Shown here: positions 4,676 through 40,515 of the stretch, in pieces
Layout of the letters: every line of letters starts with the position of its first letter
Numbering within the stretch: the stretch's first letter is position 1
Origin: Kagunavirus LM02P1
Sequence record: OZ035819.1
Length of the DNA: 43,420 nucleotides
Direction: 5' to 3' (one strand)
Notes under the pieces: model-generated
Seen by the model: the letters and a program-made list of their open reading frames with translations, nothing else
Databases searched by the model: none
Told to the model about the DNA's origin: nothing
Program-made: the position numbers and the translations under genes

Positions 4676-4704
4676 ATAGTACCCTATTATATTGGGGTGT
4701 GCAA
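4676..4704 (-). promoter_or_regulatory. sigma70-type promoter (TTGCAC-N17-TACTAT) for 4362..4655
   Basis: Read on minus strand; core 27 nt (4673-4699) identical to 13905-13931. Confidence 0.55.
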
Positions 4705-4770
4705 ACTATTTGTCTACGTATTCCAGTTATTCCGCTCAATTGTAAATGTTGGAATAAACTATTCGAATAG

Positions 4771-4799
4771 TTGACTTTTCACTGAAAATGTGCTAAGCT
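4771..4799 (+). promoter_or_regulatory. strong sigma70-type promoter TTGACT-N17-TAAGCT with TGn extended -10
   Basis: -35 at 4771-4776, -10 at 4794-4799 preceded by TGC; perfect palindrome CTATTCGAATAG at 4759-4770 abuts the -35. Confidence 0.55.
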
Positions 4800-4805
4800 C
4801 CACCT

Positions 4806-5006
4806 GAGCTTGTGAAGTATGAACAAGCGACCGCGGCGCGGGCAGGTAACGGAGCGGGACGTAAGTCCTGAGTGTAGTTACGCTGACGCGTTCGGAAGGG
4901 CCATACTCTATTGCTTGTGTAAAAAGTAGCTGGTTTACTGAGATTACGCCGTTTTTATGTTTAAATGATAAGGACTAGCGCCCCGCTTTATGGCGGGGCT
5001 TTACTT
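4806..5006 (+). ncRNA. candidate ~200-nt noncoding transcript (or leader) between promoter 4771 and terminator 4978
   Basis: GC-rich, stop-rich region bounded by a promoter and an intrinsic terminator; only coding option is a 36-codon ORF (4819..4929) without a clear RBS. Confidence 0.3.
4978..5006 (+). terminator. intrinsic terminator
   Basis: Hairpin CGCCCCGC-tttatg-GCGGGGC followed by TTTACTT, 18 nt upstream of the Rz ATG. Confidence 0.5.
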
Positions 5007-5023
5007 ATCGAGAAAGGAGAAAC

Positions 5024-5410
5024 ATGAATCTTAAAGCAACTGTCGTAGCTGTAGCATGTTTCATCATCCTTGCCTACGCACACGGCTACTATCAATACCG
5101 CATCGGCTGGAACGAAGGCCGGGTGAATCTCGTTTCGCAGCAACAGCAGAAAGCACAGGCTGAGTTAGCGAAGAAAACACAACGGCAGCAGCAGGACGAA
5201 TCTAAGGCCGCCGCCGCCGATTCCAAAGGCAAGACTGAATCTGAGGTAATCACCCGTGAAGTCGTTAAGTACATTAAAACGCCTGGTCGCAGCGTGTGCA
5301 CTTTCGATGATGCTCGCGTCCTGCTCAAGTCCCGCGCCGTCGCAAACGCCAATTCCATCTCCGGATACGACGATGATACAGCCGCCGTGCAAGCTGGCAC
5401 CGCCAAGTAG
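5024..5410 (+). CDS. Rz: i-spanin (Rz-like inner-membrane spanin subunit)
   Basis: 128 aa; N-terminal TM helix VVAVACFIILAYA then charged Q/K/A-rich periplasmic region; a lipoprotein ORF overlaps in the +1 frame. Confidence 0.65.
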   Translation: MNLKATVVAVACFIILAYAHGYYQYRIGWNEGRVNLVSQQQQKAQAELAKKTQRQQQDESKAAAADSKGKTESEVITREVVKYIKTPGRSVCTFDDARVLLKSRAVANANSISGYDDDTAAVQAGTAK

Positions 5411-5519
5411 CGACGCTGACGAGGATTTGGCTATTGATGTCCAGAACGCCGAATGTGTACGGCAACTGCGTCTTAAGGTATTCCAGTTGCAGGATTATGT
5501 GAGGAATATTCTGGAATAG
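5256..5519 (+). CDS. Rz1: o-spanin (Rz1-like outer-membrane lipoprotein), overlapped architecture
   Basis: 87 aa; signal peptide with lipobox LASC, proline-rich mature part (SSPAPSQTPIPSPD); begins inside Rz in another frame and extends past its stop. Confidence 0.6.
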   Translation: MKSLSTLKRLVAACALSMMLASCSSPAPSQTPIPSPDTTMIQPPCKLAPPSSDADEDLAIDVQNAECVRQLRLKVFQLQDYVRNILE

Positions 5520-5601
5520 TTGCCTTGCATGTTGGAATAATTTATTCTTGACATGTAAATCCGGGTGGCCCGGGTTCCAACGTCCAGGGGACATACTGAC
5601 T

Positions 5602-6303
5602 ATGAATCGTTTTTTACGTTATCCGTTCCAGGAAGAAGCTGGAGCAGAAGATAAATCAGGTGGCGGTGACGCTCCTAAAATGTACACAGCCGAAGAAGTT
5701 CAGGCGCTGATTGAGAAAGAAGTTGCCGGGCTTAAGGCCAATCAGGAAGCATTGCTGGCGGAGAAGAAAGAAGCCGCTCGCAAAGCAAAAGAGGCCGAAG
5801 AAGAACGGCAGCGCGCACACCAGGAGGCACTAAAAGCCGCTGGTAAGATGGATGAGTTCGAAAAGACGATTCGTAGCCAGTATGACCCGGTGTTAGCTGA
5901 GAAAGACGGTCGCATCTCCAGAATGGCAGAGCGCATCCTCGGCAGCGAACGTAAAGCGGTGTTAGGCTCTTTCGCGGGTGACTTCATTACCCCCGAAGCA
6001 GTAGACATTCTTGCGCCGTTCGTTAAGACTGAGTTTGAAGGTGATGATGTGGTTACTAAGTTTGTCGGCGCAGATGGCAACGTAATCACGACTGACCCGG
6101 AACAGTTCCGCAAATACCTGCGTGAACACAAAGCGTTTTCGCATTTGATTAAAGCAAATGCAGCTTCCGGCGGCGGGGCTTCCGGCGGCAAAGGCGGCGG
6201 GGCCGCACCAGCGTTTAAAGATATGAACGAAGCGGAGCGTTTAGCTCTGTACAAATCGAACCCTGCCGAATTTGAACGGCAACTTAAAGCCCTGAGGAAA
6301 TAA
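5602..6303 (+). CDS. scaffolding protein
   Basis: Coiled-coil, E/K/A-rich sequence immediately upstream of major capsid gene; ATG at 5602 chosen, frame is open from 5548. Confidence 0.55.
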   Translation: MNRFLRYPFQEEAGAEDKSGGGDAPKMYTAEEVQALIEKEVAGLKANQEALLAEKKEAARKAKEAEEERQRAHQEALKAAGKMDEFEKTIRSQYDPVLAEKDGRISRMAERILGSERKAVLGSFAGDFITPEAVDILAPFVKTEFEGDDVVTKFVGADGNVITTDPEQFRKYLREHKAFSHLIKANAASGGGASGGKGGGAAPAFKDMNEAERLALYKSNPAEFERQLKALRK

Positions 6304-6305
6304 TA

Positions 6306-7355: not shown

Positions 7356-7370
7356 GGTTAAGCTATAATC

Positions 7371-7395
7371 GGGAGGGACTTCGGTCCCTCTTTTC
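7371..7395 (+). terminator. intrinsic terminator after capsid gene
   Basis: Hairpin GAGGGAC-ttcg-GTCCCTC followed by TTTT. Confidence 0.65.
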
Positions 7396-7714: not shown

Positions 7715-7726
7715 AGGAGCTTAAAA

Positions 7727-12330: not shown

Positions 12331-12520
12331 TGTTAACTCTCTTAAATCTGGCTATGCCTGACTCGTTAATGTTGCCTATTTCAAAGAAGCTGCGATATTT
12401 AGGCGAATACATTTTTACATCGCCATTCTCTAGGGTGACCCCTTCATATACAGCACCTACTTCGAATCCATTTTTCTCCGCGTACGGACTAACCTCGGTA
12501 CATTCATACATGTCTTTCAT
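12320..12520 (-). CDS. small hypothetical protein (66 aa)
   Basis: ATG at 12520 overlaps the stop of 12517..13647 (ATGA coupling). Confidence 0.45.
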   Translation of the reverse strand: MKDMYECTEVSPYAEKNGFEVGAVYEGVTLENGDVKMYSPKYRSFFEIGNINESGIARFKRVNSDK

Positions 12521-13647
12521 CCCAGCATCTCCGGTGAAATAGTTAAACGTGCGACCTCGCCATATTCGGCGCTATAAGTAATTACATTTGCACTGCGGCC
12601 TGACATCCATCCGCCGCGGGAGGCGTAGGCGTCTTTAGCCGCTAAGGTGCGGTGTTGCTCAACAACCATGTTACGGCTTTCTACAATCTTCTGATGGTGC
12701 AGGTGGCCCACGTGGGCGTAGCTATAGGCACTCTCACCGAACGCTTTGCGGAACTTGGCAATCATAACCGGTTCGATAGCGTCGAAGCGTGCTTTATGTC
12801 CGTGATGAAAGAACAGCGTAGTTTTGCCGTGTTGTACCATCTTGTAAACATCCGGCGACGTATCGACGAACACACGCGGCTCGTTGTCGTACAGCGTACT
12901 GAACATCTCGGCTAACCAAATCATACCCGATTCGTCGTGGTTCCCTTGCACGATAAGCAGTCGGACGTTTTTATGTTTAACCAGTGCCATATCAACAACA
13001 CGGCGAACCATACGAATCATGTAGCGTACAAGTTTCTGATAGCGTGTGTCCGCATCAAGAACATGACCACTCGCTGGCGTAACTGCGTCCAGACTATCGA
13101 AGTGCGCAAGGTCGCCGAGCAGGTTAATAACTCCTGTTCCCGCGTCCGGTGCTTTCTGAAACGCCGCGTCGAACCATCGGGAGAACAGGTCTTCAGCAAT
13201 CTTCATATCCCAGTCGTCGCCGCTTTCATCGGCCCAGGCCAGCATACCGAGATGGAAATCAGATACCGTGTAAAGATTAAGTAGCTTGTCGTCGCGTTTG
13301 GCTCGAGTCGCTTTAACAGGCGCAACCGGCGTAATCTCTGACTTCATACCTTCGATTACGGCTTTCATCAACTCGACCTGACGTTCGGCGTCGGTGTCAG
13401 TCTTAACCCATTGCAGTTTGGTGTTGCCGAACTCATCCACCAGTGACGACGTCCCCTTAATCTTGTAGCCGTCCGGCACAAGGTGACTAACGTCGCGCCC
13501 GTGGCCTACGCCTTTCTTTGCCAGCTTCGCTTTACGGATACGAATAACGCGGTCTGAGATGCCGTATTTACGGGCGATGTCTACATTCTTCATCCCGGCG
13601 TTCAATTCTTCCTGTAACTGCTCGTCGGTTATTTTCTTCTGGGCCAT
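12517..13647 (-). CDS. HTH domain fused to calcineurin-like metallophosphoesterase (SbcD/Mre11-like or phosphodiesterase-like)
   Basis: 376 aa; N-terminal HTH NVDIARKYGISDRVIRIRKAKL; full metallophosphatase motif set SDFHLG, GDLAHFD, GNHDE, HHGH, GHLHH; RBS GAGGAAG. Confidence 0.7.
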   Translation of the reverse strand: MAQKKITDEQLQEELNAGMKNVDIARKYGISDRVIRIRKAKLAKKGVGHGRDVSHLVPDGYKIKGTSSLVDEFGNTKLQWVKTDTDAERQVELMKAVIEGMKSEITPVAPVKATRAKRDDKLLNLYTVSDFHLGMLAWADESGDDWDMKIAEDLFSRWFDAAFQKAPDAGTGVINLLGDLAHFDSLDAVTPASGHVLDADTRYQKLVRYMIRMVRRVVDMALVKHKNVRLLIVQGNHDESGMIWLAEMFSTLYDNEPRVFVDTSPDVYKMVQHGKTTLFFHHGHKARFDAIEPVMIAKFRKAFGESAYSYAHVGHLHHQKIVESRNMVVEQHRTLAAKDAYASRGGWMSGRSANVITYSAEYGEVARLTISPEMLG

Positions 13648-13685: not shown

Positions 13686-13892
13686 TCACTTCTCTTTGAC
13701 ATTCGAGTTGCACGCCCAGATTAAAATAAATACCCACGGCAGCAGAACCCAGCCAAGAAACAGATTAGCCATGAATATCGCTAATTTCGCTTTATGGTCG
13801 CGGAAATATGCAACCAGAAACGGCGCGAAATAAGCGAGCAGTGCAAACAGAATTAAGGAAACTGGTAAACTTGACATTTTAAACCCCTTCAT
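13686..13892 (-). CDS. small 2-TM membrane protein, superinfection-immunity (Imm)-like
   Basis: 68 aa; two hydrophobic helices around YFAPFLVAYFRDHKAKLAIFMANLFLGWVLLPWVFILIWA, matching the Imm-type signature as I recall it; first gene after promoter. Confidence 0.5.
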   Translation of the reverse strand: MKGFKMSSLPVSLILFALLAYFAPFLVAYFRDHKAKLAIFMANLFLGWVLLPWVFILIWACNSNVKEK

Positions 13893-13907
13893 TGTTGGTG
13901 TAAGTGA

Positions 13908-13936
13908 ATAGTACCCTATTATATTGGGGTGCGCAA
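13908..13936 (-). promoter_or_regulatory. sigma70-type promoter (TTGCGC-N17-TACTAT) for the antisense island
   Basis: Spacer identical to promoter at 4676-4704; sits 16 nt upstream of the ATG at 13892. Confidence 0.55.
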
Positions 13937-22718: not shown

Positions 22719-22744
22719 CCCTGTGCTTAATTTAACATAAAACT

Positions 22745-22768
22745 AAGGCCCCAAACGGGGCCTTTTCT
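22745..22768. terminator. bidirectional intrinsic terminator between convergent late (+) and replication (-) transcription
   Basis: Hairpin AAGGCCCC-aaac-GGGGCCTT followed by TTCTC. Confidence 0.65.
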
Positions 22769-24509: not shown

Positions 24510-25185
24510 GATTAGCCTCGTAAACTGCTTTTGCGAAACCCCGCGGGGTAAGGCTGCGGATTGTTTTTGTCCTCACCGATTTACCGCCTAATTTATTGTG
24601 TTGGTCAGAATACTCATCATCCACAGCAACGACTGACTTAACCGGCATTACGAAACCATTACCTGTCCAAAGACATGTCTTTTTAGGGTACGCGTCCCTC
24701 GGTTTTATGTACTCTGGGAACATTGGATGTGTGTCGTCTTCGGGTAAATAGCCGCCGTATTCGTACGGGTTGAACGTGTAGTCAGGCTTACGCCATAAAG
24801 ACGAAAGAACGCTAACCGGATTCTCAATCATATAGGGCACGTTGTACCTTTTAGCCAGACGCGCCGCCACTTTGCATGTAATCACGGCCTCTACCTGAAA
24901 AGTTGGATTCTTCTTCCGCTTCGTTTCAAAATGCGCCGCGCCGCTAACGGCTAAATCTGTGCACGGAGGGAACGCGAAAATAATATCCGGTGCAACCTCG
25001 AAGTCGAACTTATTATCAATCCACGCGTTTATATAGTGAATGTTCTCGTGTTCAACTTTTGCACCCAATCGCGCGTAGTCGCCGTGGTCGGCGCCGTCGT
25101 AGTTGAAACAATAGCAAGTATGGCCTGCTTCCGCCCACGGTTGGGCCATAAGGCCCGAACCGTCAAACAATGACCAGACAATCAT
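24502..25185 (-). CDS. compact DNA cytosine-C5 methyltransferase-like protein
   Basis: 227 aa; motif I-like LFDGSGL, motif IV-like DIIFAFPPCTDLAVSG (Pro-Cys dipeptide), motif VI-like MIENPV; no obvious target-recognition domain. Confidence 0.5.
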   Translation of the reverse strand: MIVWSLFDGSGLMAQPWAEAGHTCYCFNYDGADHGDYARLGAKVEHENIHYINAWIDNKFDFEVAPDIIFAFPPCTDLAVSGAAHFETKRKKNPTFQVEAVITCKVAARLAKRYNVPYMIENPVSVLSSLWRKPDYTFNPYEYGGYLPEDDTHPMFPEYIKPRDAYPKKTCLWTGNGFVMPVKSVVAVDDEYSDQHNKLGGKSVRTKTIRSLTPRGFAKAVYEANHV

Positions 25186-25412: not shown

Positions 25413-25667
25413 TTAGTTAGATAATTCGCCTTGAACTTGCTTAATAAGTTCTCTGGCCGTTGTGAAGTCTACGGACAGCCCTTTAGCGACGTCTTCCGCA
25501 AGCACCTTGTGACCAACTGACCCGAAGCCCAGGATACGGTTTACTTCCGAAACCTTCATAGACCATGAGTAATTAACTGACGCCCCTGTGTATTTACCGA
25601 TACGAACAGATGAATCGATTGAACCAATAATCATGGTGTTTACTGACAGTTGAAGTTCGATAGCCAT
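25413..25667 (-). CDS. hypothetical protein (84 aa)
   Basis: ATG at 25667 downstream of promoter 25702-25730. Confidence 0.4.
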   Translation of the reverse strand: MAIELQLSVNTMIIGSIDSSVRIGKYTGASVNYSWSMKVSEVNRILGFGSVGHKVLAEDVAKGLSVDFTTARELIKQVQGELSN

Positions 25668-25668: not shown

Positions 25669-25983
25669 TTATAATTCCTTATATTGTTGGGGTATGTGCT
25701 TACTATAATAGTCTGCTATTAGGGTGTCAATCTGTTTTATCGAACCAACGACAAAAACATTTGCGCCACGTTTGCGCATCCGCTCATGCTCACGTAGCTG
25801 GTGGGGGTCAGGCTTCGTGTTTTCGTCTTTCTTAACCTCGACGAACCAGACGACGCCGCCGGGGAGAATTGCCAGCAGGTCGGGGGCGCCGGAACGCCCC
25901 TCGTAGGAAAGTTTACGAACGAGGCCACCAAGGGCCTCGAATCGCTCCTTTGCATATTTCTGTATTTTGCCTTCCGGGGTCAT
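25669..25983 (-). CDS. VRR-NUC domain nuclease (PD-(D/E)XK fold)
   Basis: Motif GAPDLLAILPGGVVWFVEVK (D...E-V-K core); ATG at 25983 preferred over upstream TTG at 25998. Confidence 0.65.
   Translation of the reverse strand: MTPEGKIQKYAKERFEALGGLVRKLSYEGRSGAPDLLAILPGGVVWFVEVKKDENTKPDPHQLREHERMRKRGANVFVVGSIKQIDTLIADYYSKHIPQQYKEL
25702..25730 (-). promoter_or_regulatory. sigma70-type promoter TTGACA-N17-TATAGT inside the 3' end of the VRR-NUC gene
   Basis: Near-consensus hexamers read on minus strand; would drive 25413..25667 and downstream genes. Confidence 0.5.
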
Positions 25984-26132
25984 GAGCGCAGAACCCAAGT
26001 AAGGAAAGCCCCGCCCAGAACGGCAACACCGACAAAATTAAAGAACAGGCCATAGCAGAACATCGCGGCTATTCCCGCACCGAGTAGAAGTGCGAGCATG
26101 GTTACTATCGTCCAAAATACAAGCATTGTCAT
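25980..26132 (-). CDS. small membrane protein (50 aa, 2 predicted TM)
   Basis: ATG at 26132 with GGAGG RBS; hydrophobic throughout; stop overlaps VRR-NUC start. Confidence 0.35.
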   Translation of the reverse strand: MTMLVFWTIVTMLALLLGAGIAAMFCYGLFFNFVGVAVLGGAFLTWVLRS

Positions 26133-26214: not shown

Positions 26215-26346
26215 TCATTCCAGCACCCACAGATAAATTGCGATGAACATGCCCAGTACGGCGGCCATCATGCTGTATTGACCCTCGTGGCAGTAGACAC
26301 CGGCGGCGAATCCCGCCAGTACCGCGATAATAAGTTTACTTAGCAT
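26215..26346 (-). CDS. small membrane protein (43 aa)
   Basis: ATG at 26346 overlapping the 3' end of the polymerase gene; hydrophobic. Confidence 0.3.
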   Translation of the reverse strand: MLSKLIIAVLAGFAAGVYCHEGQYSMMAAVLGMFIAIYLWVLE

Positions 26347-28609
26347 AGCGGTACACCTCTTCCCCAGCCCATGTTAACGGGAACCCTTCAGCCCATTCAG
26401 GTAATGCGCATAGCAGGTCACCCATCTCTTTAACCGTGTACTCCGGCGTATCTGGCGTTTCAGCCACACATTCGTCGTGTACGTGGAGCACAATCGGGTA
26501 GCCCGCCGCCTCGACCGTCAGGAGTCCGTTAACTAGTAAGTCACGGCACAACGCCTGGATGATGTTTTCACACAATTTTCCGCCGTGGGTGTACAAAGTT
26601 GTCCACTGGCGGGTGGTCTGATTCTCACCCTGGTACTTGATGCGGACGTTAGTAGTGACACGCCCATCCTCGTCAGTTTCTTTAGTAACGCTCAGACCTA
26701 TGCCGGGGTATGACATGATGCGCCCCGACGGCAGTTCCACGCACAACCACCAACCCGGCACAAAGTTACCCTGTCTGTCTTTCTCTTTAGTACGCCAGAT
26801 GCGGATGGCTCTGTCGCCGTTAAGGCGTACTCGGGCCCCCGCCCAAAACTCTCGTCCCGGATTTCTAATGGCGGCTATCACCGAATCCTTAAGGTCATTC
26901 CAGAATTTCACTGTTTCCGGATGGGCTTCCCGCCACATGCGCTTAATGGCGTCACAGGTGCGCCAGACTTCTTTAGGCAGCACATAAGAGGCCCGTTCAT
27001 CTTTTTTACCAGGCTTTGGCGGGCGTTTAGCCTCCTGAATTCTGGCCCATTCGTAGCCACGGGCGGTAGCCGCCCAAATGTGGTCGGGGAACGTGCCCCG
27101 CATTGTCTCTGTCATTTTAAAGAGGTCCAGCCCGTAAGTTTTAGCCATAGTCATAAAAGCCCCTACGCCCCCCTCGTAGCCGAGGCCGAGTTCGCAACAT
27201 TTCCCGACCTGACGTAGGTCCTTACGGGTGGCTTTTAGTTCTACGGGGTCCATGCCGAACATCTTACCAGCTGTGGCGCAATAGATATCAATCCCCGCGC
27301 GGAACGTCTCAAGGGCGGACGTCTCCCCCGCCGTCCAGGCTAGCCCGCGCCCTTCCACGTTTGAGTAGTCGGCAACGAGCAACTTATTACCTTTTTCCGG
27401 GATGATGCAACTGCGGACAGTCGAGGCCGTTAGTTTAGACACATCGAAACGGCGATGCGCCCGGCCCTTTAAAAGCAAATTGATGCCAAATGATAGCGGG
27501 TTAAGCCTGCGGTTCCAGTCTTCGTCGGACTCCCACGGCTGGCGCACAAGTTTCTTTTCCTCGTTAGTCGGGTCGTCGTGGTAGTACCCGCGCGACAGGT
27601 TCTGCGGTTGGAACCCTTTACCCGCAAATCGTAAAGTGCGCTTTGCCCCACCGTACTGGATGCAACCGCGGCGGCGGCCGTCTTTGGACCGTCCTAGCAG
27701 GAGCGGTTTGTATTTTGTCGACGCCGTGGAGGCCGCGCCGAGGCGCATCTCAATGATTGTGCGCGCATCGTCAGGTAAGTCGTCGTCCTCTAGCAAACCT
27801 TCGAGCGTTGCTTTCTGTGCATTATAGATATTGTAGGCCGGTGCCAGCTCCCGAAGGATTGGCAGGAAGTCTTTACCCGTTAGCTTCCCGCCAAATTTAG
27901 CCCTGGCCTCGTTTTTTAGCTCTTGCTTGTGGCGTTCAACTGCTGCTACCGCCGCCTCAGCAAGAGCCGCATCAACAAAGAAGCCTCGGTCGTTGATTAA
28001 CTGGTCAAGTTCAAGTACACGGTCCTCGAAATCGGAGTTACCCCAACGTGGCAGCTTATGGAAGACTTCACGCATCGCTGTGATGTCGCTCACGGCGTAC
28101 TTGATGAACAGCGCCCACTCGTCCGGGTGCGTCTCCGCGGTGTAGCGGCGGATTTTGTAGTTCTTCGGCGTCGGTTTAGAAAAACGCTGAATCAGCGCCT
28201 TACCGCGTTTGTCTTTCGCATTGTCCGCAGATACGCCCAACACTTCGCACAATGCGTCAAGTGAACCCGGCAGCGCGTGACGAAACGCCCAAATCATCGT
28301 ATCAATGGTGTTGCTTACCGGAATATCAAAGCCCCAGCAGTGCTTCATGATGAGTCTGTCGAACATTGAGCCGTTGTGCCACACCATCTTAATGCGACTG
28401 TTAGGCTTAACCAGACGGCGTAACGCGCGGTGCAAATCCCCCGGCATGTCGCTGCCGTTGGTGCAATCCCACACCTGCACAGGCTCGTCGTCAAAAGCGT
28501 ATGTACAGATAAGGACTTCTGTGGTTGGGTGTTCGGCGTAAGCGTAGGAGCCGACTTTCTTTAAATCGGCTTCGGAGAATGTTTCAAAGTCAAGGTATAA
28601 GTAGCTCAT
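26336..28609 (-). CDS. family A DNA polymerase with 3'-5' exonuclease domain
   Basis: Exo I YLDFETFS; Pol motif A LLVADYSNVEGR, motif B RQVGKCCELGLGYEGG, motif C VLHVHDE; ATG at 28609 with AGGAAA RBS preferred over TTG at 28663. Confidence 0.85.
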   Translation of the reverse strand: MSYLYLDFETFSEADLKKVGSYAYAEHPTTEVLICTYAFDDEPVQVWDCTNGSDMPGDLHRALRRLVKPNSRIKMVWHNGSMFDRLIMKHCWGFDIPVSNTIDTMIWAFRHALPGSLDALCEVLGVSADNAKDKRGKALIQRFSKPTPKNYKIRRYTAETHPDEWALFIKYAVSDITAMREVFHKLPRWGNSDFEDRVLELDQLINDRGFFVDAALAEAAVAAVERHKQELKNEARAKFGGKLTGKDFLPILRELAPAYNIYNAQKATLEGLLEDDDLPDDARTIIEMRLGAASTASTKYKPLLLGRSKDGRRRGCIQYGGAKRTLRFAGKGFQPQNLSRGYYHDDPTNEEKKLVRQPWESDEDWNRRLNPLSFGINLLLKGRAHRRFDVSKLTASTVRSCIIPEKGNKLLVADYSNVEGRGLAWTAGETSALETFRAGIDIYCATAGKMFGMDPVELKATRKDLRQVGKCCELGLGYEGGVGAFMTMAKTYGLDLFKMTETMRGTFPDHIWAATARGYEWARIQEAKRPPKPGKKDERASYVLPKEVWRTCDAIKRMWREAHPETVKFWNDLKDSVIAAIRNPGREFWAGARVRLNGDRAIRIWRTKEKDRQGNFVPGWWLCVELPSGRIMSYPGIGLSVTKETDEDGRVTTNVRIKYQGENQTTRQWTTLYTHGGKLCENIIQALCRDLLVNGLLTVEAAGYPIVLHVHDECVAETPDTPEYTVKEMGDLLCALPEWAEGFPLTWAGEEVYRYAK

Positions 28610-28761
28610 TTCTTTTTCCTTAAATCTAGTGCCTTCGTTTCGCTGAGTCTTATTTTCATACAATCACGGCAAATCCACACATGCCGGTATCCGGCCCGGT
28701 ACTTATCCGCGTACCACGGAAGAGGTTTCATATAGCGATAAACGTGCTTACAGAAAAACAT
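28606..28761 (-). CDS. small Cys/His-containing protein (51 aa)
   Basis: ATG at 28761; CKH...CRDC; stop TGA overlaps the polymerase ATG (ATGA coupling); coordinates checked by hand translation. Confidence 0.3.
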   Translation of the reverse strand: MFFCKHVYRYMKPLPWYADKYRAGYRHVWICRDCMKIRLSETKALDLRKKK

Positions 28762-28820: not shown

Positions 28821-29447
28821 TTAACGGCGGCGACGTTCGCGGCGCGGTGCGTCATCTTCTTCGTCGTCTTCCAGGTCATTGACGCTTGCAGCGACTTTAG
28901 AACCGCCAAACGCTTTACCTTCGCCGACGTATTTAATCGCCAACAGGTTAACTCCGAGGACTTTGTATTTCTGGCTGAACCAGATTTCTACGCTTACGTT
29001 AGCAACGCAGCCGCTGTAAACCTGTTCGCCTTCAATCTGTTCGCCGTCTACGTTGAAGTCCTGCTCTACCTGAGTCTCACCTTTTTTAGAGGTTACAATC
29101 AGTGGCTGTTTCTGTGCTTTCGCTTTGAAGTAGAAGCCTTCCGGGAAGTCTTCAAACGGATTGTCGCGCTCGGCAATGTCTTTAATAGCGCATTTATCCA
29201 TGTGCTTACCTTCGCCGTAGTTGGACTTCATCCATTTCTCGGCAGCAGCTGCGCCTAACGCCTCTTCAACTACAGCGTAAACCGTGTCGTAGAGTGCGTC
29301 GATTTGAGCATGGTCGGACGGCAGGATAATAGTTGCGCTGTACTGGCCTTTAGTGATTGAGCCATCATCGTTTTCACGGTCTTTTTCGCGTTCGAATACG
29401 TTAACCCAAGCAGTGTTTACTTTACGCAGATTTAATTTCAGTCCCAT
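28821..29447 (-). CDS. single-strand DNA-binding protein (DUF2815-like)
   Basis: 208 aa with acidic C-terminal tail DLEDDEEDD typical of SSB; own near-consensus promoter; adjacent to DUF2800-like nuclease. Confidence 0.55.
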   Translation of the reverse strand: MGLKLNLRKVNTAWVNVFEREKDRENDDGSITKGQYSATIILPSDHAQIDALYDTVYAVVEEALGAAAAEKWMKSNYGEGKHMDKCAIKDIAERDNPFEDFPEGFYFKAKAQKQPLIVTSKKGETQVEQDFNVDGEQIEGEQVYSGCVANVSVEIWFSQKYKVLGVNLLAIKYVGEGKAFGGSKVAASVNDLEDDEEDDAPRRERRRR

Positions 29448-29499
29448 TTGATTTCTCGCTTTTCAGTTTACTCCGGGAACTGCCCGGCCAGTGATTAGA

Positions 29500-29528
29500 A
29501 ATATAATAGCTAACTATTCAGGTGTCAA
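29500..29528 (-). promoter_or_regulatory. sigma70-type promoter TTGACA-N17-TATATT for SSB gene
   Basis: Near-consensus hexamers read on minus strand, ~50 nt upstream of the ATG at 29447. Confidence 0.6.
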
Positions 29529-29791: not shown

Positions 29792-30999
29792 TCAGGCCGT
29801 TTGTCGTCTGCCGTTGCAACGCATGGTGCGCCTGGCTTACGGGTGATGAAGTCTTTCAGTTCTTCTTCCGGTATTACTTTAACCGCTTCGGTAGGGGTCA
29901 TGAGCACTTCTTTAGTCAGCTTGTCGCCGTAGAGTTCTGCCACTTTCTCTGCGTCTTTCCACGCACGATTACCCGGCCTGCCTTCAACCAACTTGTACCC
30001 CGGCACTTTCTTACCGGAATGCAAAGCGGCGGCCATAGCTTTCTCAACCTTGTCGATGTGCTGGCGCAACAACGGCAACTTCTCATACTCAGATACGAGT
30101 TGCTCCGGCGTAAGTTCCAGTGCAAAGTCATCTTCCAGTTCTCCGGCCAGTACCGAATTAACGGTTTTTGTACGCGCGGCGCACTGTTCAGAGAACCGGC
30201 ACCACTGACAGCCATCGACCGACGGCCTGAAGTCCGACGCCTTCAGGTTCTTCTTACCGCGGAAATAGGCATCAAGAGCCAACAGCGCGCGTTTCTGGGC
30301 AAACTTAGCGAACAGCTCCAGCCCCTCAGCCGAGATGTCCCACTCCGACGCGCCACCCGCGTACGGCTGGAAGATAACCAGGCGAACTGTTGTTATGTGA
30401 TAACGTCTCTTGAGTCGGCGATAAACACCGAGAGCATAGAGCATAAGCTGTTTGTTTTCTTTCGCTTCGACACGATGCCGCCCTGTTTTAAGGTCGCCAA
30501 TAATTAGCATGTGCTCGTCTGTGTTCGCCAGCTCCTGGACGGCAACAAGGTCGGCGGTTCCGAATGTCTCGACGCCTTCGTAACCTGGATGCAGCACCTC
30601 AGTAAGATTGACGCGCATCTCCAGTTTTGCGTAAGTAGCCACGTCGATAATCGCTTTGCAGTAGTCGGTGTACTTTGTACACTGGTCAATCATGTCCGCC
30701 GTAATAAGTACCGCGCCTTTCATCGGACTGATTAGCGCCTTAATCTGGCCTTTACCCTCATCCAGTACATATGCACCTACTTCACGTGCTAACGGTAGCG
30801 CAGTTCCGCGGATATAGGCATTTAGGTGCACTTCTGCGATTGTATGACATGCGGTCCCTGTAACGGCAGCTTTACCCGATTCGTTAGGAATGTCTTTTTC
30901 ACACGCCAGTGATGCGGCACAGGTAAGCCACTTTTTAGCACCTGATGGCGACAGTAAGGCGTGCACATCGTTATTGCCGCCGCGTTCTTTTAAAATCAT
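29758..30999 (-). CDS. PD-(D/E)XK nuclease, DUF2800/Cas4-like
   Basis: 413 aa; N-terminal LSPSGAKKWLTCAAS motif as I recall for this family; sits between SSB and primase as in many phage replication modules. Confidence 0.55.
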   Translation of the reverse strand: MILKERGGNNDVHALLSPSGAKKWLTCAASLACEKDIPNESGKAAVTGTACHTIAEVHLNAYIRGTALPLAREVGAYVLDEGKGQIKALISPMKGAVLITADMIDQCTKYTDYCKAIIDVATYAKLEMRVNLTEVLHPGYEGVETFGTADLVAVQELANTDEHMLIIGDLKTGRHRVEAKENKQLMLYALGVYRRLKRRYHITTVRLVIFQPYAGGASEWDISAEGLELFAKFAQKRALLALDAYFRGKKNLKASDFRPSVDGCQWCRFSEQCAARTKTVNSVLAGELEDDFALELTPEQLVSEYEKLPLLRQHIDKVEKAMAAALHSGKKVPGYKLVEGRPGNRAWKDAEKVAELYGDKLTKEVLMTPTEAVKVIPEEELKDFITRKPGAPCVATADDKRPEWNRVTEEDLK

Positions 31000-31493
31000 T
31001 TCTCGGCTCCGTTAACTGTAAACCCGTATTTAATTTCGGCTTGCCTACGAGCCTTAGCCGCGTTCTCTAACCTATCGTAAGCACCTAAATAAATTGGCGC
31101 CCCATCTACATAAATTCTGGCGACCCACTTACCAGAGCGTTTATGAAACCCAACGCCTTTAACACCTGAAGCATTGTCAGTCCGTATTTTGGTGCCGTGG
31201 GCGATACTACCTCGTCGCATTTTTATAAGATTTTCTATTCTGTTATCAGTTCTATCTTTATTTGCGTGGCGAATTACTTCCCCTGGCGCTATCTCCCCAT
31301 TAAACATCTCCCAAACCACGTGGTGGATAAGTTTAGTAACCCCGTTAAAACGTAGTATTTTGAATTCACTTCCGTCGTTATCCACCCTCACACTCCCAGC
31401 TTCTTGGCCTATTTTTACCGATTTTGATGGTCTTATCTTCCAATACAATTTCCCTGTGACAGGGTCGTAGTCAAACAGTTCATGCCAATTCAT
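30996..31493 (-). CDS. HNH homing endonuclease with C-terminal AP2 DNA-binding domain
   Basis: HNH region HHVVWEMFNG...IRHANKDRTDNRIENL; AP2-like region GVKGVGFHKRSGKWVARIYVDG; ATG at 31493 with GGGAGG RBS; locally AT-rich by eye. Confidence 0.7.
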   Translation of the reverse strand: MNWHELFDYDPVTGKLYWKIRPSKSVKIGQEAGSVRVDNDGSEFKILRFNGVTKLIHHVVWEMFNGEIAPGEVIRHANKDRTDNRIENLIKMRRGSIAHGTKIRTDNASGVKGVGFHKRSGKWVARIYVDGAPIYLGAYDRLENAAKARRQAEIKYGFTVNGAEK

Positions 31494-31762
31494 ACCCTGA
31501 CCTCCCACTGGTCGATTAAATGCCGTGTCTTATGGTCACAATGCATCGCCCAGCTATACATCGACTCGAAGACATAAAAGTCACTTTTAACGAAAGTCGT
31601 GCGCTTAATCTGCGACAGGTGACGGCCTATATCTTTCGGCTTTGGTACTTTGCCTAAGAACGCCATCTCTTCCATCTGGTGCGCACCCGACGGCGCACGT
31701 AACAGCCACAACACCTCTGTGTTATCCCGGCGGTCGATGCCGCGGTAGAGTTGGTAAATCAT
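31490..31762 (-). CDS. hypothetical protein (90 aa)
   Basis: Stop overlaps HNH start (ATGA coupling). Confidence 0.4.
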   Translation of the reverse strand: MIYQLYRGIDRRDNTEVLWLLRAPSGAHQMEEMAFLGKVPKPKDIGRHLSQIKRTTFVKSDFYVFESMYSWAMHCDHKTRHLIDQWEVRV

Positions 31763-31804: not shown

Positions 31805-32317
31805 TTATTCTTCTTCGAAATACTTGTTCTTAATCGCCGTCAGACGTTCCAGGTATTCAGCCAGGTCTTCGTCTTTAATCGCGGCAATCTTCATCTTCTT
31901 GCCGGTGAACTCTTCCAGCAGTTCATCGGAATCGTCACACGCGGCATCGCTCGGACCCTCGTTAATCGCATCGTCGATAGCCTGAATCTGGTCGCGCAGA
32001 GACTGGTAATCGACTTCTTCCGGCTCTGGCGTCGGCGCATCTACAGGTTTAGGGGCTGGTTTTGATTTGCCAGGCTTGCGTTTAGGCTTTTCTTCTTCTG
32101 CCGGTTTAGTGTCAACGAGGTCTTCACCTTCAACCGGGATTTCTTTCCCGATGCCAGTGCCTGGGTCGACTTCAAGCACCTCTCCAGTAACCGATACATC
32201 TACAAGCATTTCACCTACATGCTCAGTTGGCGGCACCGGTCGTTTCGCGCTATTCGCAGCAATCAGTTCATGCGCAACTACGAAACGTTCCAGTAATTTT
32301 AAAAATTGGTCTAACAT
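31805..32317 (-). CDS. acidic hypothetical protein (170 aa)
   Basis: ATG at 32317; Pro/Lys-rich linker and strongly acidic C-terminal half; preceded by conserved leader and promoter. Confidence 0.45.
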   Translation of the reverse strand: MLDQFLKLLERFVVAHELIAANSAKRPVPPTEHVGEMLVDVSVTGEVLEVDPGTGIGKEIPVEGEDLVDTKPAEEEKPKRKPGKSKPAPKPVDAPTPEPEEVDYQSLRDQIQAIDDAINEGPSDAACDDSDELLEEFTGKKMKIAAIKDEDLAEYLERLTAIKNKYFEEE

Positions 32318-32348
32318 TTGTTTCTCTCCTCTCGTTTGGTATGGGCTA

Positions 32349-32378
32349 ACTATAATAGCTAACTATTCATGATGTCAA
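32349..32378 (-). promoter_or_regulatory. sigma70-type promoter TTGACA-N18-TATAGT for 31805..32317
   Basis: Read on minus strand; leader 32318-32348 shares 15-nt AAACGAGAGGAGAGA with the leader at 37094-37122. Confidence 0.5.
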
Positions 32379-32442
32379 TGGGCTTTTCTAAAATAATTAA
32401 TATGGTACTATTCACATATCAACTAACTAAGGAGTAATTGAC

Positions 32443-32658
32443 ATGCAACCATCTGAACTAGGCATCCGTGTAGAGCAACGCCGCAAAGAACTCGGCATCT
32501 CCCAGCGCCGTCTGGCTGTCCTGGCCGGTGTTTCTCAGGGAGCGATTAACCAGCTGGCACTTGGAGTAACTCAGGACGTCCGACCGGCGACGCTGTTTAA
32601 ACTGGCGGAAGTGCTGGAAGTAGACGCCAAGTGGCTGGCGTTCGGTGAAGGGGCTTAA
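32443..32658 (+). CDS. XRE-family helix-turn-helix transcriptional regulator
   Basis: 71 aa; HTH LGISQRRLAVLAGVSQGAINQLALG; RBS AAGGAG; only + strand gene inside the - strand replication module. Confidence 0.7.
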   Translation: MQPSELGIRVEQRRKELGISQRRLAVLAGVSQGAINQLALGVTQDVRPATLFKLAEVLEVDAKWLAFGEGA

Positions 32659-35002: not shown

Positions 35003-35278
35003 TTATTCCAGGTCGCGGGAGATATTACCCTCGGGGACCAACACTTTTCCAATACTTCTCGCTTTCTCTGTAATAGGCGTCGCTCTTGTTGCCCGATAAA
35101 ACTTTCCTTTATTAAGAATCTCACCATGTCGCTCGAGCACATCTAAAGCATGTTTAATCGGGCTTACACCGTAATTATCCAACCGGTATCTCCGAAGCCC
35201 GTCTACTGTAAAAGCGCCGTTCGCTTCGGTCAGTCTGCGTGCACACATTAATATGTTTTTCTGGAATTTAGTTAGCAT
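35003..35278 (-). CDS. hypothetical protein (91 aa)
   Basis: Second gene of leftward early operon. Confidence 0.4.
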   Translation of the reverse strand: MLTKFQKNILMCARRLTEANGAFTVDGLRRYRLDNYGVSPIKHALDVLERHGEILNKGKFYRATRATPITEKARSIGKVLVPEGNISRDLE

Positions 35279-35447
35279 CTTTTACGTTCTCCTTAATCCA
35301 CGCCTCCACAGTAGCGCGGTCAAACGTACCCGGCTGACGGTAGCCGTTAATAACACGACAACACTCCGGGAACTTTCCTGACCGAAGCCAGCGATTAAGA
35401 GTCATAGGGGAAACCCCGATTAAGTCTGCTACTTCTTTCTGTGTCAT
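35268..35447 (-). CDS. AlpA/excisionase-type HTH DNA-binding protein
   Basis: ATG at 35447 with RBS; motif MTQKEVADLIGVSPMTLNRWLRSGKFP. Confidence 0.55.
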   Translation of the reverse strand: MTQKEVADLIGVSPMTLNRWLRSGKFPECCRVINGYRQPGTFDRATVEAWIKENVKDAN

Positions 35448-35476
35448 TTTATGCGCCCTCTTTATCAAGTGAAACA

Positions 35477-35505
35477 ACTATAACACCTACAATAGCCAAA
35501 CACAA
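35477..35505 (-). promoter_or_regulatory. sigma70-type promoter TTGTGT-N17-TATAGT for leftward replication operon
   Basis: Hexamers with 17-nt spacer read on minus strand upstream of 35447. Confidence 0.45.
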
Positions 35506-35868
35506 CCTATTGACAAAATAAAATGTAGCTGTAAAATCAACGTATCGAAGAGCTTTAGTTCAGAATTACTTAGAAACAATATTCTTAAGTCTCGGGTACT
35601 TAAAGCCCCGCCCTAAAGCGGGGCGCTAAATAGTACTCTTGGTAACGTTAGTATCTAAGTTTCCTCAAAGTAACAGCAAGTGGCAAGAAAGCCCCCGTCT
35701 ATTTAAATTTTACCCTCCTACATAAGCCACTGATAATTAAAAGTTTCTATAGATGCCGTAAGCAAGGTAGAGAGTACTTCACTCCGCTGGGGTGGGCTAA
35801 CGCCCACCCACTGCGTTGCGTACTCTTTTAAGAAACGAAAGAATCACAACGGCAACGTAACTATTCTC

Positions 35869-35897
35869 TTGCACGCCCCAACATAATAGGATACTAT
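35869..35897 (+). promoter_or_regulatory. sigma70-type early promoter TTGCAC-N17-TACTAT
   Basis: Same architecture as 37065-37093, 4676-4704 and 13908-13936; followed by conserved leader TTATCGAAACGAGA. Confidence 0.55.
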
Positions 35898-35931
35898 TCA
35901 CTTATCGAAACGAGACAGAGGAGTGAGGGTT

Positions 35932-36607: not shown

Positions 36608-36769
36608 ATGAGAGAAGCATCCGAACGGTGGGCCGTCGTCGAAGGGCTGCCCGTTAACAAGGGTTCAAAGAAAGAGTACCTGAACGTTAAGACGCGTCTC
36701 GCGTGGCGGGCGTGGAAAGCTGGTGTGCAGTTCCGTGCTGGTATAACAGGTGGGGTGACAGGTCAATAG
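36608..36769 (+). CDS. small basic protein (53 aa)
   Basis: ATG at 36608 with RBS AAGGA; below ORF-track cutoff. Confidence 0.35.
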   Translation: MREASERWAVVEGLPVNKGSKKEYLNVKTRLAWRAWKAGVQFRAGITGGVTGQ

Positions 36770-36792
36770 CTTACTATTTTACTGAGTGACTT

Positions 36793-37064: not shown

Positions 37065-37093
37065 TTGCACACACAGATATAATAGACTACTAT
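37065..37093 (+). promoter_or_regulatory. sigma70-type promoter TTGCAC-N17-TACTAT
   Basis: Same architecture as 35869-35897; followed by leader TTATCGAAACGAGAGGAGAGAGAAG. Confidence 0.55.
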
Positions 37094-37122
37094 TCAGTTA
37101 TCGAAACGAGAGGAGAGAGAAG

Positions 37123-38175: not shown

Positions 38176-38176
38176 T

Positions 38177-38818: not shown

Positions 38819-39236
38819 CGGTAAGACGATGGCCTGCGACACCCGAGTTACCGCGGGCGACACGTATTTCAACACAGATACCAAGATATACGAGAGTGAT
38901 GCTTATGTTATCGGGGTCGCCGGTGACGCGGGCTGTGGTACTATGCTTGTTCAGGTATCAAATATCCTGACCATGCGTACCTATGAGTATAACTTTAAGG
39001 CTATTGTATACGAGAAGCACACCAGACGTGTTTTCTATGTGTCATTCGATAAAAGCTGGGGGTCAAATAGCTGCGTTGTCCCAATTGTTGATAGCTACTT
39101 CGCCGTCGGTTCAGGGGCTGATTTCGCGCGCGCAGCTATGGAATGTGAGTATTCCGCACAGGGGGCAGTGGCCGTTGCATCGAAGTTTGACACTAACACC
39201 GGCGGCAAGATTATTACCAAACAACTATTAGGATAA
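38799..39236 (+). CDS. HslV/proteasome beta-subunit-like Ntn hydrolase
   Basis: ATG at 38799 with RBS GGAGA; after Met the protein starts TTI (HslV starts TTIVSV); VTAGDTYFNTDTK, YVIGVAGDAGCG and FAVGSGADFARAA parallel HslV segments. Confidence 0.55.
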   Translation: MTTIAFDGKTMACDTRVTAGDTYFNTDTKIYESDAYVIGVAGDAGCGTMLVQVSNILTMRTYEYNFKAIVYEKHTRRVFYVSFDKSWGSNSCVVPIVDSYFAVGSGADFARAAMECEYSAQGAVAVASKFDTNTGGKIITKQLLG

Positions 39237-39295
39237 TTCCTACCCGTGGTATCCTCCAGTTACTGCATACTTAATACGCACCTGGAGGATTCATC

Positions 39296-39604
39296 TTGGA
39301 TAAATTTACTGAAACTGTGACAGGCTGGCTTCTCGCTGCCGCGCTAGCCGGAGGGGTTATCGGACTACGGCAACATAAGTCCGTTATTTCTGGGCCTATA
39401 GACGGCTTCTGCTTTATTGCAACTGGCTTCACTTGTGCCGTGTTTGGTGCACCTCTCGCGGCTCAATGGTTTGGCATTACGGGCGACCGTGAAATCGCAG
39501 GCCTGGGCTTCATTATCGCTATTCTCTGGATGCCTATCTATTCCCGCCTCTCTGGTATTGTTGCCGGAGAATATATCGCACGTCGAGGAGGCCCAGATGA
39601 ATGA
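39296..39604 (+). CDS. holin
   Basis: 102 aa, three hydrophobic helices, charged C-terminus; immediately upstream of lysozyme. Confidence 0.6.
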   Translation: MDKFTETVTGWLLAAALAGGVIGLRQHKSVISGPIDGFCFIATGFTCAVFGAPLAAQWFGITGDREIAGLGFIIAILWMPIYSRLSGIVAGEYIARRGGPDE

Positions 39605-39869
39605 GTTATTCTGGTTCGGCGGTATGCTGGCAATCGGAGGCGCATCGCTGTTTAATGTATATCATCCCAGCGTTGACGACGGGCTATTTGGCCGGGTGCT
39701 CTATATCCTGACCGCTATTGTCTGCGCCGCCGGGTGTATCCACCTGTTACAGGGCAGCATGTCACCTACGCTGCCTGAGACATTAATCACATTAGTTGCG
39801 CTGCGTCAGATTCGTCATGCGTGGCTGTCATACGGAGGATATAAGCGTGTCTCGAAATATTTCAGATAA
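39597..39869 (+). CDS. small membrane protein (second holin-like / lysis regulator, putative)
   Basis: ATG at 39597 with RBS GGAGG, overlapping holin stop (ATGAATGA); two hydrophobic segments. Confidence 0.45.
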   Translation: MNELFWFGGMLAIGGASLFNVYHPSVDDGLFGRVLYILTAIVCAAGCIHLLQGSMSPTLPETLITLVALRQIRHAWLSYGGYKRVSKYFR

Positions 39870-40335
39870 TGGATTGCATTTTACCGCTGCGTTCGAGGGG
39901 TTCCGCGGAACTGCATATCGCGCTACACCGAACGAGACGTACCTGACTATTGGTTACGGTCATTACGGGCCGGATGTAACGCCAGGCAAGACCATCACCC
40001 CGGGGCAAGGCCTCCTGTTACTAAATCGCGATATGGCGAAGGCCGTAGGCGCGGTTGATGCAGCAGCACACCATTCACTGACACAGGCACAGTTCGACGC
40101 TGTGTGCGACCTGGTCTATAACGCGGGTGCGGGCGTGATTGCCGCTACCACCGGAACCGGTAAGGCGCTGCGCTCCGGTGATGTTGCGACGCTGCGGGCT
40201 AAGCTGGCGCTGTTCATCAACCAGAACGGCAAACCGTTGCTCGGCCTGCGCCGCCGTACAGCCGGACGGCTCGCACTGTTCGACGGTAAACCGTGGCAGG
40301 AGGCTGAGGCTATTGGGCGCGCGGTGAAAGGTTGA
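39847..40335 (+). CDS. endolysin, GH24 phage lysozyme
   Basis: GTG at 39847 after GGAGG; ISDNGLHFTAAFEGFRGTAYRA...YLTIGYGH (catalytic E, TIGxGH) and C-terminal RRRTAGRLALF; frame open from 39796. Confidence 0.75.
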   Translation: MSRNISDNGLHFTAAFEGFRGTAYRATPNETYLTIGYGHYGPDVTPGKTITPGQGLLLLNRDMAKAVGAVDAAAHHSLTQAQFDAVCDLVYNAGAGVIAATTGTGKALRSGDVATLRAKLALFINQNGKPLLGLRRRTAGRLALFDGKPWQEAEAIGRAVKG

Positions 40336-40402
40336 CACTTAAGACTAATCCGACGATACTTAAATCACCTCCTGCTTCACCCCTCTACTCTCCAGTTTTC
40401 TC

Positions 40403-40433
40403 CCGGCCCTGACCCAGCCGGGATTTTTTTTAT
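40403..40433 (+). terminator. intrinsic terminator after lysis cassette
   Basis: Hairpin CCCGGC-cctgaccca-GCCGGG followed by ATTTTTTTTT. Confidence 0.7.
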
Positions 40434-40453
40434 CTATTTTCTGCAATGACTAG

Positions 40454-40482
40454 TTGACTATTACCTACGACCCTATTATATT
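40454..40482 (+). promoter_or_regulatory. sigma70-type promoter TTGACT-N17-TATATT
   Basis: Near-consensus; leader 40483-40515 carries the ATCGACAACGAGA variant of the conserved leader. Confidence 0.6.
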
Positions 40483-40515
40483 TACTCCATCGACAACGAG
40501 AACGGAGTAGAGAAG

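Follow-up and report, generated by a model that had tools for sequence, protein, structure and literature searches.

Kagunavirus LM02P1 (sequence record OZ035819.1) was analysed over a stretch of 43,420 nucleotides, hereafter the window, and what follows concerns a family of promoters scattered along it and the 18-bp dyad TGAATAG-N4-CTATTAT that is built into them. This 43.4-kb window is the nearly complete genome of a virulent Escherichia coli siphophage (Guernseyvirinae), with ~89–90% nucleotide identity to Snoke, fFiEco03, fBC-Eco01, K1G and K1H and with the gene order of its annotated relative fBC-Eco01. Its structural genes are carried by the plus strand, with two small gene islands of opposite orientation within the structural region; the replication block (22.7–35.5 kb) reads leftward, a block that comprises the lysis and packaging genes as well as small genes (35.9–43.4 kb) reads rightward, and many terminators lie between the operons. 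Two small helix-turn-helix (HTH) proteins are encoded there: a 71-residue Xre/Cro-type protein of the HTH_3 family (32443–32658, plus strand; hereafter Xre), and a 59-residue MerR/Xis/BldC-like protein of the HTH_17 family (35268–35447, minus strand), which is the first gene of a leftward operon. No further regulator, sigma factor or antiterminator was detected in PHROGs and Pfam scans of 30 window proteins.

What, then, unites these promoters? An earlier note on this DNA had proposed nine of them, as stretches of 29–30 bp, and all nine are found where it placed them and on the strands it gave, each upstream of a ribosome-binding site and a start codon. The loose consensus by which they were described, TTG(A/C)(C/A)(A/C)-N17-TA(C/T)(T/A)(A/T)T, has four matches in the window against 0.35 expected, and these are the only four of the nine that fit it exactly (4676, 29500, 35869 and 37065). 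The spacer words ATAATAG and CTATTCA, also reported at the time, are a real shared feature, but they are actually the two halves of the dyad. In copy number, the 14-bp core of this dyad, AATAG-N4-CTATT, far exceeds every other 5+5 inverted repeat in the window: there are 8 exact copies against 0.05 expected, a number that none of 100 shuffles reached. The dyad is perfect at seven of the nine sites, is present at 40454 as a one-mismatch copy moved onto the -35, and is absent from 35477, which must be removed from the family. Three further copies had been overlooked: a degenerate one in the promoter of the Xre gene (32397–32414), one in a promoter at 4771–4799 (plus strand), and an orphan perfect palindrome at 36765–36778. 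Every family site has a sigma-70 -35/-10 pair, 17–18 bp apart and resembling TTGACA/TATAAT, and lies 20–60 nt upstream of a start codon; these are presumably promoters for the host sigma-70 polymerase. On them the dyad takes three registers, in either orientation, and always overlaps a -10 or a -35, which allows the promoters to be sorted into three classes.

Class A comprises P4676, P13908, P35869 and P37065, laid out as TTGCAC-N8-ATAATAG-nnTA-CTATTCA with TACTAT as the -10; the dyad is centred at about -12.5, over the -10, and the core TTGCAC-17-TACTAT amounts to TTG plus TAnnAT. P4676 (4673–4704, minus strand) has its -35 TTGCAC at 4699–4704, a 17-bp spacer, its -10 TACTAT at 4676–4681 and the operator TGAATAGTACCCTATTAT at 4673–4690, and is predicted to drive a 97-residue open reading frame (ORF; 4362–4655); its orthologue in fBC-Eco01 is annotated as PHIRE promoter2. 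P13908 (13905–13936, minus strand; -35 TTGCGC, -10 TACTAT at 13908–13913, operator 13905–13922), whose site differs from that of P4676 at 2 of 36 nt, has as predicted targets a superinfection-immunity gene (13686–13892) and a gene for 376 residues (12517–13647). The two others, both TTGCAC-17-TACTAT on the plus strand, are P35869 (35869–35931; operator 35883–35900, AACGAGA motif at 35909–35915, ATG at 35932) and P37065 (37065–37122; operator 37079–37096, AACGAGA at 37105–37111, ATG at 37123). Two other readings of the class A DNA were discarded. As a bidirectional promoter, the dyad would have two -10-like hexamers facing each other, and the class A reverse strands offer no usable -35; an alternative -10, TATAAT, in the left half-site has a suitable -35 only at 13908 (ATCACA-17-TATAAT), the spacing at 4676 being 19 bp.

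In class B (P25702, P29500 and P32349) the dyad is inverted relative to the -35, as TTGACA-N2/3-TGAATAG-N4-CTATTATAGT, and is centred at about -18.5, running from the spacer into the start of the -10; the cores come close to the consensus, with 11 of 12 positions matching (TTGACA-17/18-TATAGT or TATATT). P25702 (25702–25730, minus strand; -35 TTGACA, -10 TATAGT at 25702–25707) carries the operator CTAATAG-CAGA-CTATTAT at 25705–25722, and its predicted targets are ORF 25413–25667, a methyltransferase gene and an SNF2 helicase gene. This is the promoter that was said to lie within a VRR-NUC coding sequence: it does occupy the last ~20 codons, at the 3' end of the nuclease-like ORF 25669–25998 (minus strand), and relatives annotate a nuclease there, but the sole Pfam match, to VRR_NUC, does not reach the cut-off (E 0.011; 16.3 bits where 23.8 are required). 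The methyltransferase gene of this operon (PHROG 757; 24502–25185, minus strand) is a mosaic insertion, absent from fBC-Eco01 and SETP7, with 62% identity to its counterpart in Klebsiella phage VLCpiS11a.

P29500 (29500–29528, minus strand; TTGACA-17-TATATT, operator TGAATAG-TTAG-CTATTAT at 29503–29520) is predicted to drive an Enc34-type single-stranded DNA (ssDNA)-binding gene (28821–29447) and the DNA polymerase gene (26336–28663). The leader of that ssDNA-binding gene (29449–29492, minus strand) reads CACTGGCCGGGCAGTTCCCGGAG and includes a CCGGG/CCCGG hairpin. Both Kagunavirus and Jerseyvirus have this leader conserved, and its 5' part, CACTGGCCGGGCAG, is kept also in the operator-less Cornellvirus SP-031 and SenTO17; a possible role is that of a translational operator through which the ssDNA-binding protein would regulate itself. 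The third member, P32349 (32318–32378, minus strand; TTGACA-18-TATAGT), has its operator at 32352–32369 and a leader at 32318–32348 with AACGAGA at 32330–32336; its predicted targets are a 170-residue gene (31805–32317) and the exonuclease operon, and it is divergent from the Xre gene.

Class C, P40454 and P4771, carries the dyad with one mismatch over the -35, centred at about -33.5, on TTGACT-17-TATATT or TAAGCT cores. P40454 (40447–40515, plus strand; TTGACT-17-TATATT) has the operator TGACTAG-TTGA-CTATTAC at 40447–40464, AACGAGA at 40495–40501 and an ATG at 40516, and heads the block leading into the packaging genes. P4771 (4764–4799, plus strand) has its -35 TTGACT at 4771–4776, its -10 TAAGCT at 4794–4799 preceded by TGc, and the operator core AATAG-TTGA-CTTTT at 4766–4779; the site is also present in fBC-Eco01, at 6154. 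It is followed by ~180 nt, a strong terminator (4980–4999) and then the spanin gene. The product read from this interval could be a small RNA or a peptide of ~38 residues: in fBC-Eco01 the stretch equivalent to 4800–4999 (plus strand) is annotated with a 38-codon coding sequence, and the window has no Rfam match. The promoter of the Xre gene itself (32397–32414, plus strand) has the operator TTAATAT-GGTA-CTATTCA in the class A register, with its right half-site intact and its left one degenerate; since the left half-site is altered, the promoter has a TGn and thus an extended -10 (TGg TACTAT, 32403–32411), next to a poor -35. The same degeneracy is found in Jerseyvirus, and the site corresponds to PHIRE PP5 of fBC-Eco01.

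A few sites stand outside these classes. The promoter-like one at 35477–35505 (minus strand; TTGTGT-17-TATAGT), from which the HTH_17 operon starts, lies in an allelic module common to only 2 of 45 related loci, and stands back-to-back with P35510 (35510–35537, plus strand; TTGACA-16-TAAAAT), likewise without operator. These back-to-back promoters belong to a 390-bp intergenic region (35478–35868), also containing two GC-rich hairpins, that could be an origin, a non-coding RNA or an immediate-early control region. The orphan palindrome AATAGCTTACTATT (36765–36778) has no usable -35; it is not conserved, and since most relatives have CAATAGTTTGGGATTTT at this place it is specific to the window and probably non-functional. 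Finally, a one-mismatch palindrome, TATAG-TATG-CTATT, lies at 2788–2805 across the start codon of the head-morphogenesis gene, at a site listed by PHIRE in Golestan; the equivalent place in fBC-Eco01 holds a full class A promoter and an extra leftward gene, so that the palindrome could be what is left of a gene island since lost.

How strongly is the dyad held by selection? Orthologous promoters were located by flanking similarity rather than by the motif, yielding 27–34 distinct Kagunavirus sequences per site. The -35 hexamer has a mean entropy of 0.05 bit with 90% of its positions invariant, and the half-site bases outside the -10 are hardly different (0.06 bit, 83% invariant), as against 0.54 bit and 12% for the central N4 and 0.57 bit and 35% for the other spacer bases; the contrast (Mann-Whitney p = 1e-9) is descriptive only, the sequences being related. 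Sigma-70 makes no base-specific contacts in the promoter spacer. The half-sites are therefore invariant where sigma-70 does not read, which indicates a second, sequence-specific reader of the dyad, and the pattern fits a protein-binding operator. When Kagunavirus is compared with Jerseyvirus, -35, half-sites and -10 are retained, and the differences fall in the N4 and the remaining spacer. Among inverted repeats, the palindrome ranks first in fBC-Eco01 (7 copies) and in every one of the 34 Kagunavirus loci taken from IMG/VR; of the Jerseyvirus loci, most also have it in first place and the others have it tied for first (2–5 copies per locus). A weaker form exists in Serratia phage Smarc3 and two IMG/VR lineages; the palindrome is absent from Cornellvirus SP-031, SenTO17 and Klebsiella phage VLCpiS11a, and a PHIRE-like 20-mer scan (≤4 mismatches) for an equivalent repeated motif in SP-031 and SenTO17 gave only terminators. 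The outer operator base also differs between the genera: Jerseyvirus half-sites have T on either side without exception (74 of 74), and a Kagunavirus operator typically pairs a G half-site with a T half-site (about half G overall).

The finding is thus real, non-random and conserved, and its interpretation is corrected: what the promoters share is an operator in the promoter, not a leader. That they form a common regulon, as had been suggested, is well supported by one conserved dyad in at least nine promoters, with half-sites under purifying selection; the common signal had been sought in an initiation-region or post-transcriptional element, and is instead a DNA operator within the core promoter. 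The reading that we consider somewhat better than even is that of sigma-70 promoters with built-in 18-bp operators, repressed by a small phage HTH protein that would most likely be Xre. What the analysis establishes is a family of sequences, with the statistics and the conservation pattern that go with it, and the homologies of two candidate proteins; promoter activity, binding, repression and the identity of the binder are predictions made from these. A dimer of the small HTH protein would bind the operators and block RNA polymerase, turning down together the early, replication, moron and packaging-proximal units. The response would be graded, the operators being perfect on classes A and B and carrying one mismatch on class C, and the extended -10 promoter of Xre would be shut off last because it keeps only half an operator. 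Two features speak to the sign of the control: the dyad is found in both orientations and three registers and always over a core hexamer, which argues for occlusion, hence repression, rather than activation; and the class B cores are near-consensus, so that an activator should not be needed.

Which protein would bind? Xre has a Pfam HTH_3 match at E 2.3e-12 (47.2 bits against a cut-off of 23), and its nearest solved relative is the Cro protein of phage 434, likewise of 71 residues (E 5.4e-7 over residues 6–68); it is also 33% identical to the N-terminal DNA-binding domain of P22 C2 (E 8e-7). The OR and OL operators of P22, taken from the P22 record, read AnTnAAG-N4-CTTnAnT, with the same 7-4-7 layout and inner AG/CT as the dyad. 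In both genera the Xre gene and P32349 point away from each other, the operator being perfect in P32349 and reduced to a half in the promoter of Xre. Three points favour Xre over the other small HTH protein. Smarc3 has three family promoters (one perfect and two one-mismatch operators) together with an Xre gene, and no HTH_17 gene (best hidden Markov model E 1.2 in this phage); four recognition-helix alleles of HTH_17 exist in Kagunavirus with the operator unchanged; and the outer operator base follows the genus-specific recognition helix of Xre and not those four alleles, a contrast that effectively compares n = 2 lineages.

Several observations weigh against this scheme, beginning with that small number of lineages. 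Part of every dyad is the -10 hexamer, and its conservation is not wholly independent of sigma-70. Xre and the palindrome occur together in Kagunavirus, Jerseyvirus and Smarc3, but orthologues of Xre, with 40–43% identity, are also found in the palindrome-less Cornellvirus SP-031, SenTO17 and VLCpiS11a. Locus L072, considered as a natural case of a swapped Xre, proved to be an ordinary Jerseyvirus whose alignment is partial, and tells nothing either way. The Xre recognition helices differ (SQGAINQ in Kagunavirus, SQSLITH in Jerseyvirus) though the 14-bp core is identical. Finally, the phyletic range of HTH_17 matches that of the strong palindrome exactly, namely Kagunavirus and Jerseyvirus. 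It is because Xre orthologues occur without the palindrome, and because the recognition helices differ despite the same core, that the identity of the binder is something we infer. As matters stand, Xre is given a little under an even chance, a binder that is neither of the two proteins perhaps one in three, and HTH_17 about one in five.

That last figure also describes the strongest rival, which keeps the operator-repressor scheme and changes only the binder: HTH_17 would be made first, from its operator-less promoter at 35477, and would then act on all the promoters with operators. Its distribution is suggestive. Of 443 phage records with HTH_17, essentially all are Kagunavirus or Jerseyvirus; among 87 loci, the gene goes together with multiple perfect palindromes, and it is absent from the palindrome-less Cornellvirus, SenTO17 and Klebsiella phage. 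An RNA-seq paper on a Kagunavirus lists an HTH gene among four early genes, and by gene order it is probably HTH_17. Smarc3, however, carries family operators and no HTH_17 gene, the four alleles leave the operator as it is, and one of them even shares the Jerseyvirus recognition helix though the outer operator base differs. By homology the protein (Pfam HTH_17, 37.5 bits; BldC structure 6AMA, E 0.005) resembles BldC and gpNu1-type winged helices, its nearest solved relatives, and these bind direct repeats head-to-tail, not dyads. In the window, the HTH_17 gene and its promoter (35268–35505) form an allelic module that is 100% identical to that of K1H and only ~70% identical to that of nearly all other Kagunaviruses and Jerseyviruses.

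Four of the promoters have in addition the AACGAGA leaders to which the earlier note had attached a possible post-transcriptional or initiation-region role. The motif is present in all four, and the identity of 15 nt, AAACGAGAGGAGAGA, between leaders 37094–37122 and 32318–32348 is correct. Genome-wide, AACGAGA is not enriched (8 copies against 5.7 expected), but the four copies begin 11–12 nt after the -10 of family promoters, at +5 to +11, and are kept at orthologous sites in both genera, the predicted transcripts starting with AUCGAAACGAGAGGAG or similar. A structured RNA element was ruled out, the four leaders folding worse than their own shuffles (z +0.9 to +1.8), and a scan of the whole window found no match to an Rfam family. 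The leaders run directly into the Shine-Dalgarno sequence, and relatives are conserved up to AACGAGA(GG) and then diverge into different genes. In comparison with loci L007–L040, the first genes from 37123 onward, from 40516 onward and from 32317 downward are hypervariable: 14 distinct first ORFs follow P37065 in 24 loci, about 8 follow P40454 in 25 loci, and 7 follow P32349 in 36 loci. Rather than a dedicated post-transcriptional signal, the leaders look like unstructured, purine-rich AACGAGA(GG)AG sequences; being unstructured and without Rfam match, leading straight into the Shine-Dalgarno sequence and followed by divergent gene content, they are best taken as the 5' untranslated region (5'UTR) and Shine-Dalgarno sequence of a portable cassette. 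The simplest reading is that promoter, operator and 5'UTR/Shine-Dalgarno together would constitute a portable cassette for exchanging early genes.

Could such a cassette be sufficient? It may be argued that there is no dedicated regulator, that the sites are copies of one promoter-5'UTR cassette, and that AT-rich sequence resembling a -10 on each strand produces the dyad incidentally. The near-identity of paralogues such as 4676 and 13908, the coincidence of cassette ends with mosaic junctions (as in the P37065 type, with its 14 first genes in 24 loci) and the overlap of half of each dyad with the -10 all go in this direction. Yet the half-site in the spacer varies as little as the -35 does, although adjacent spacer bases and the N4 drift, the core is kept between genera despite their differing flanking spacer and N4, and simple copying predicts neither the inverted orientation nor the third register over the -35. 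This explanation is unlikely, at roughly one chance in eight.

Still less probable is a host nucleoid protein or transcription factor binding the dyad. Nothing direct speaks for it, although the same element is found in phages of E. coli and Salmonella with differing candidate proteins. We know of no E. coli factor with the dyad consensus, and the spacing of the ARG box differs from that of the dyad. The outer base is specific to the genus, and sister lineages that share these hosts (SP-031 and SenTO17, both on Salmonella) lack the element; taken together, these two facts argue for a determinant of the phage lineage.

A loading site for a Q/AlpA-type antiterminator, with AACGAGA as a -10-like pause signal, is more improbable again. 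As in lambda Q and AlpA systems, a cis element lies between -35 and -10 and a conserved motif in the initially transcribed region, here at fixed +5 to +11; the operons are set apart by many terminators, and AACGAGA resembles the pause hexamer CACGAT of Pseudomonas aeruginosa PalpB (PMC9371919). In the AlpA system, however, the final T of that hexamer is essential (PMC9371919), whereas AACGAG has a G at position 6. The AlpA protein of P. aeruginosa has DNA-contact residues numbered up to 142, plus a ring in the RNA exit channel (PMC9371919), in contrast to an HTH_17 of only 59 residues, and no Q-like protein was found among the proteins scanned. The missing T and the lack of a suitably sized protein therefore make such a pause signal unlikely; moreover, the leader motif is present at only 4 of about 10 promoters, and the dyad overlaps the -10 or -35 itself.

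The motif itself has already been published. Seven PHIRE copies, tgAATAGTa-ccTATTat-T, were reported in fBC-Eco01 as promoters of a phage-encoded RNA polymerase and so annotated in GenBank (PMC9825357; OM272052.1), and seven in VB_EcoS-Golestan (PMC7203180). Both sets are the same motif at orthologous positions, presented as a 20-mer promoter word, with no remark on its dyad symmetry, its occurrence in two orientations and a third register, its -35/-10 context or a protein that might bind it. For Guernseyvirinae, no paper was found that reports dyad symmetry, both orientations or a regulator of the Cro type. The label "Phage RNAP promoter" (PMC9825357; OM272052.1) must be wrong given a sigma-70 pair at every site, PHIRE detecting repeated words only, and the chance that a phage polymerase reads these promoters is negligible: no RNA polymerase gene is found among the 78 annotated coding sequences of fBC-Eco01, and the window ORFs of at least 400 residues are terminase, portal, tape measure, tail, tailspike, helicases, DNA polymerase and exonuclease. 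The operator reading corrects this assignment. The temporal RNA-seq of the Kagunavirus K1B4 is gene-level, with sampling from 5 to 120 min and at most 9% phage reads, and is too coarse for promoters.

To return to sigma-70 promoters repressed through a built-in operator, the closest systems in mechanism are those of P22 (C2/Cro; AnTnAAG-N4-CTTnAnT, 18 bp) and 434 (Cro/cI; ACAA-N6-TTGT, 14 bp). Shared with them are an HTH_3 protein of ~70 residues, a dyad with inner AG/CT whose 4 central bp vary and are presumably not contacted, an operator over core promoter elements, and a regulator gene divergent from a regulated promoter. Here, however, the half-sites have another sequence, the operators are single and spread over ~10 scattered promoters instead of forming two tripartite OL/OR clusters, neither a cI partner nor an integrase is present, and binding is a prediction. 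No integrase is annotated in relatives (fBC-Eco01; PMC9825357), and of 185,579 bacterial species genomes searched with the pattern of the class B promoters a single one matched, an unrelated metagenome-assembled genome, so that this set holds no prophage relatives. This is not a lambdoid temperate switch: in place of a cI-type maintenance repressor with a cleavable C-terminal domain there is only a 71-residue protein, with no integrase annotated in relatives and no prophage forms in the genomes searched.

By analogy only, LexA and its SOS boxes come to mind, with a palindromic box over the -35/-10 of many unlinked promoters and a weaker site at the regulator gene; the protein family and the box sequence are unrelated, and no inducing signal is seen here. 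As for the cassette, the promoter-early stem-loop (PeSL) cassettes of T4-type phages were reportedly described by Arbiol, Comeau and Krisch in 2010 as mediators of modular gene shuffling. Like them, the Kagunavirus cassettes are repeated early-promoter elements bordering hypervariable gene slots; unlike them, they have no stem-loop and include an operator and a 5'UTR/Shine-Dalgarno sequence. In its broadest form the proposal becomes doubtful, though still worth stating: in Kagunavirus and Jerseyvirus nearly the whole transcription programme might be run by one Cro-like protein through one operator, in three registers, on ~10 promoters, as a genome-wide timer or throttle without a lysogeny partner, the cassette doubling as a swap site for early genes.

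No new class of mechanism is involved, and a specialist would not be surprised by what is a known kind of system, Cro/C2-like. Kagunaviruses and jerseyviruses are nevertheless widely isolated for phage therapy and food biocontrol and have been proposed as small engineering chassis, while their regulation is essentially unstudied. Reading the motif as a sigma-70 promoter plus operator corrects a GenBank annotation, offers a directly testable model (one small protein, one 18-mer, ~10 targets), and would give those who engineer these phages a set of repressible promoters of graded response, together with a conserved cassette for insertions.

Some features elsewhere in the window deserve a word. 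The large terminase (30–1265) is only ~39% identical to those of fBC-Eco01 and SETP7, and nucleotide similarity to most Kagunaviruses begins at ~1253; the packaging module appears to have been swapped. Within the replication operon, a 170-residue HNH endonuclease with an AP2 DNA-binding domain (30996–31508, minus strand), only 34–46% identical to its counterparts in relatives, is probably a homing endonuclease. Finally, GAGCCTAAGAGC is repeated three times in tandem at about 22690–22725, at the 3' end of a small ORF, and these copies just precede a bidirectional terminator at 22745–22764.

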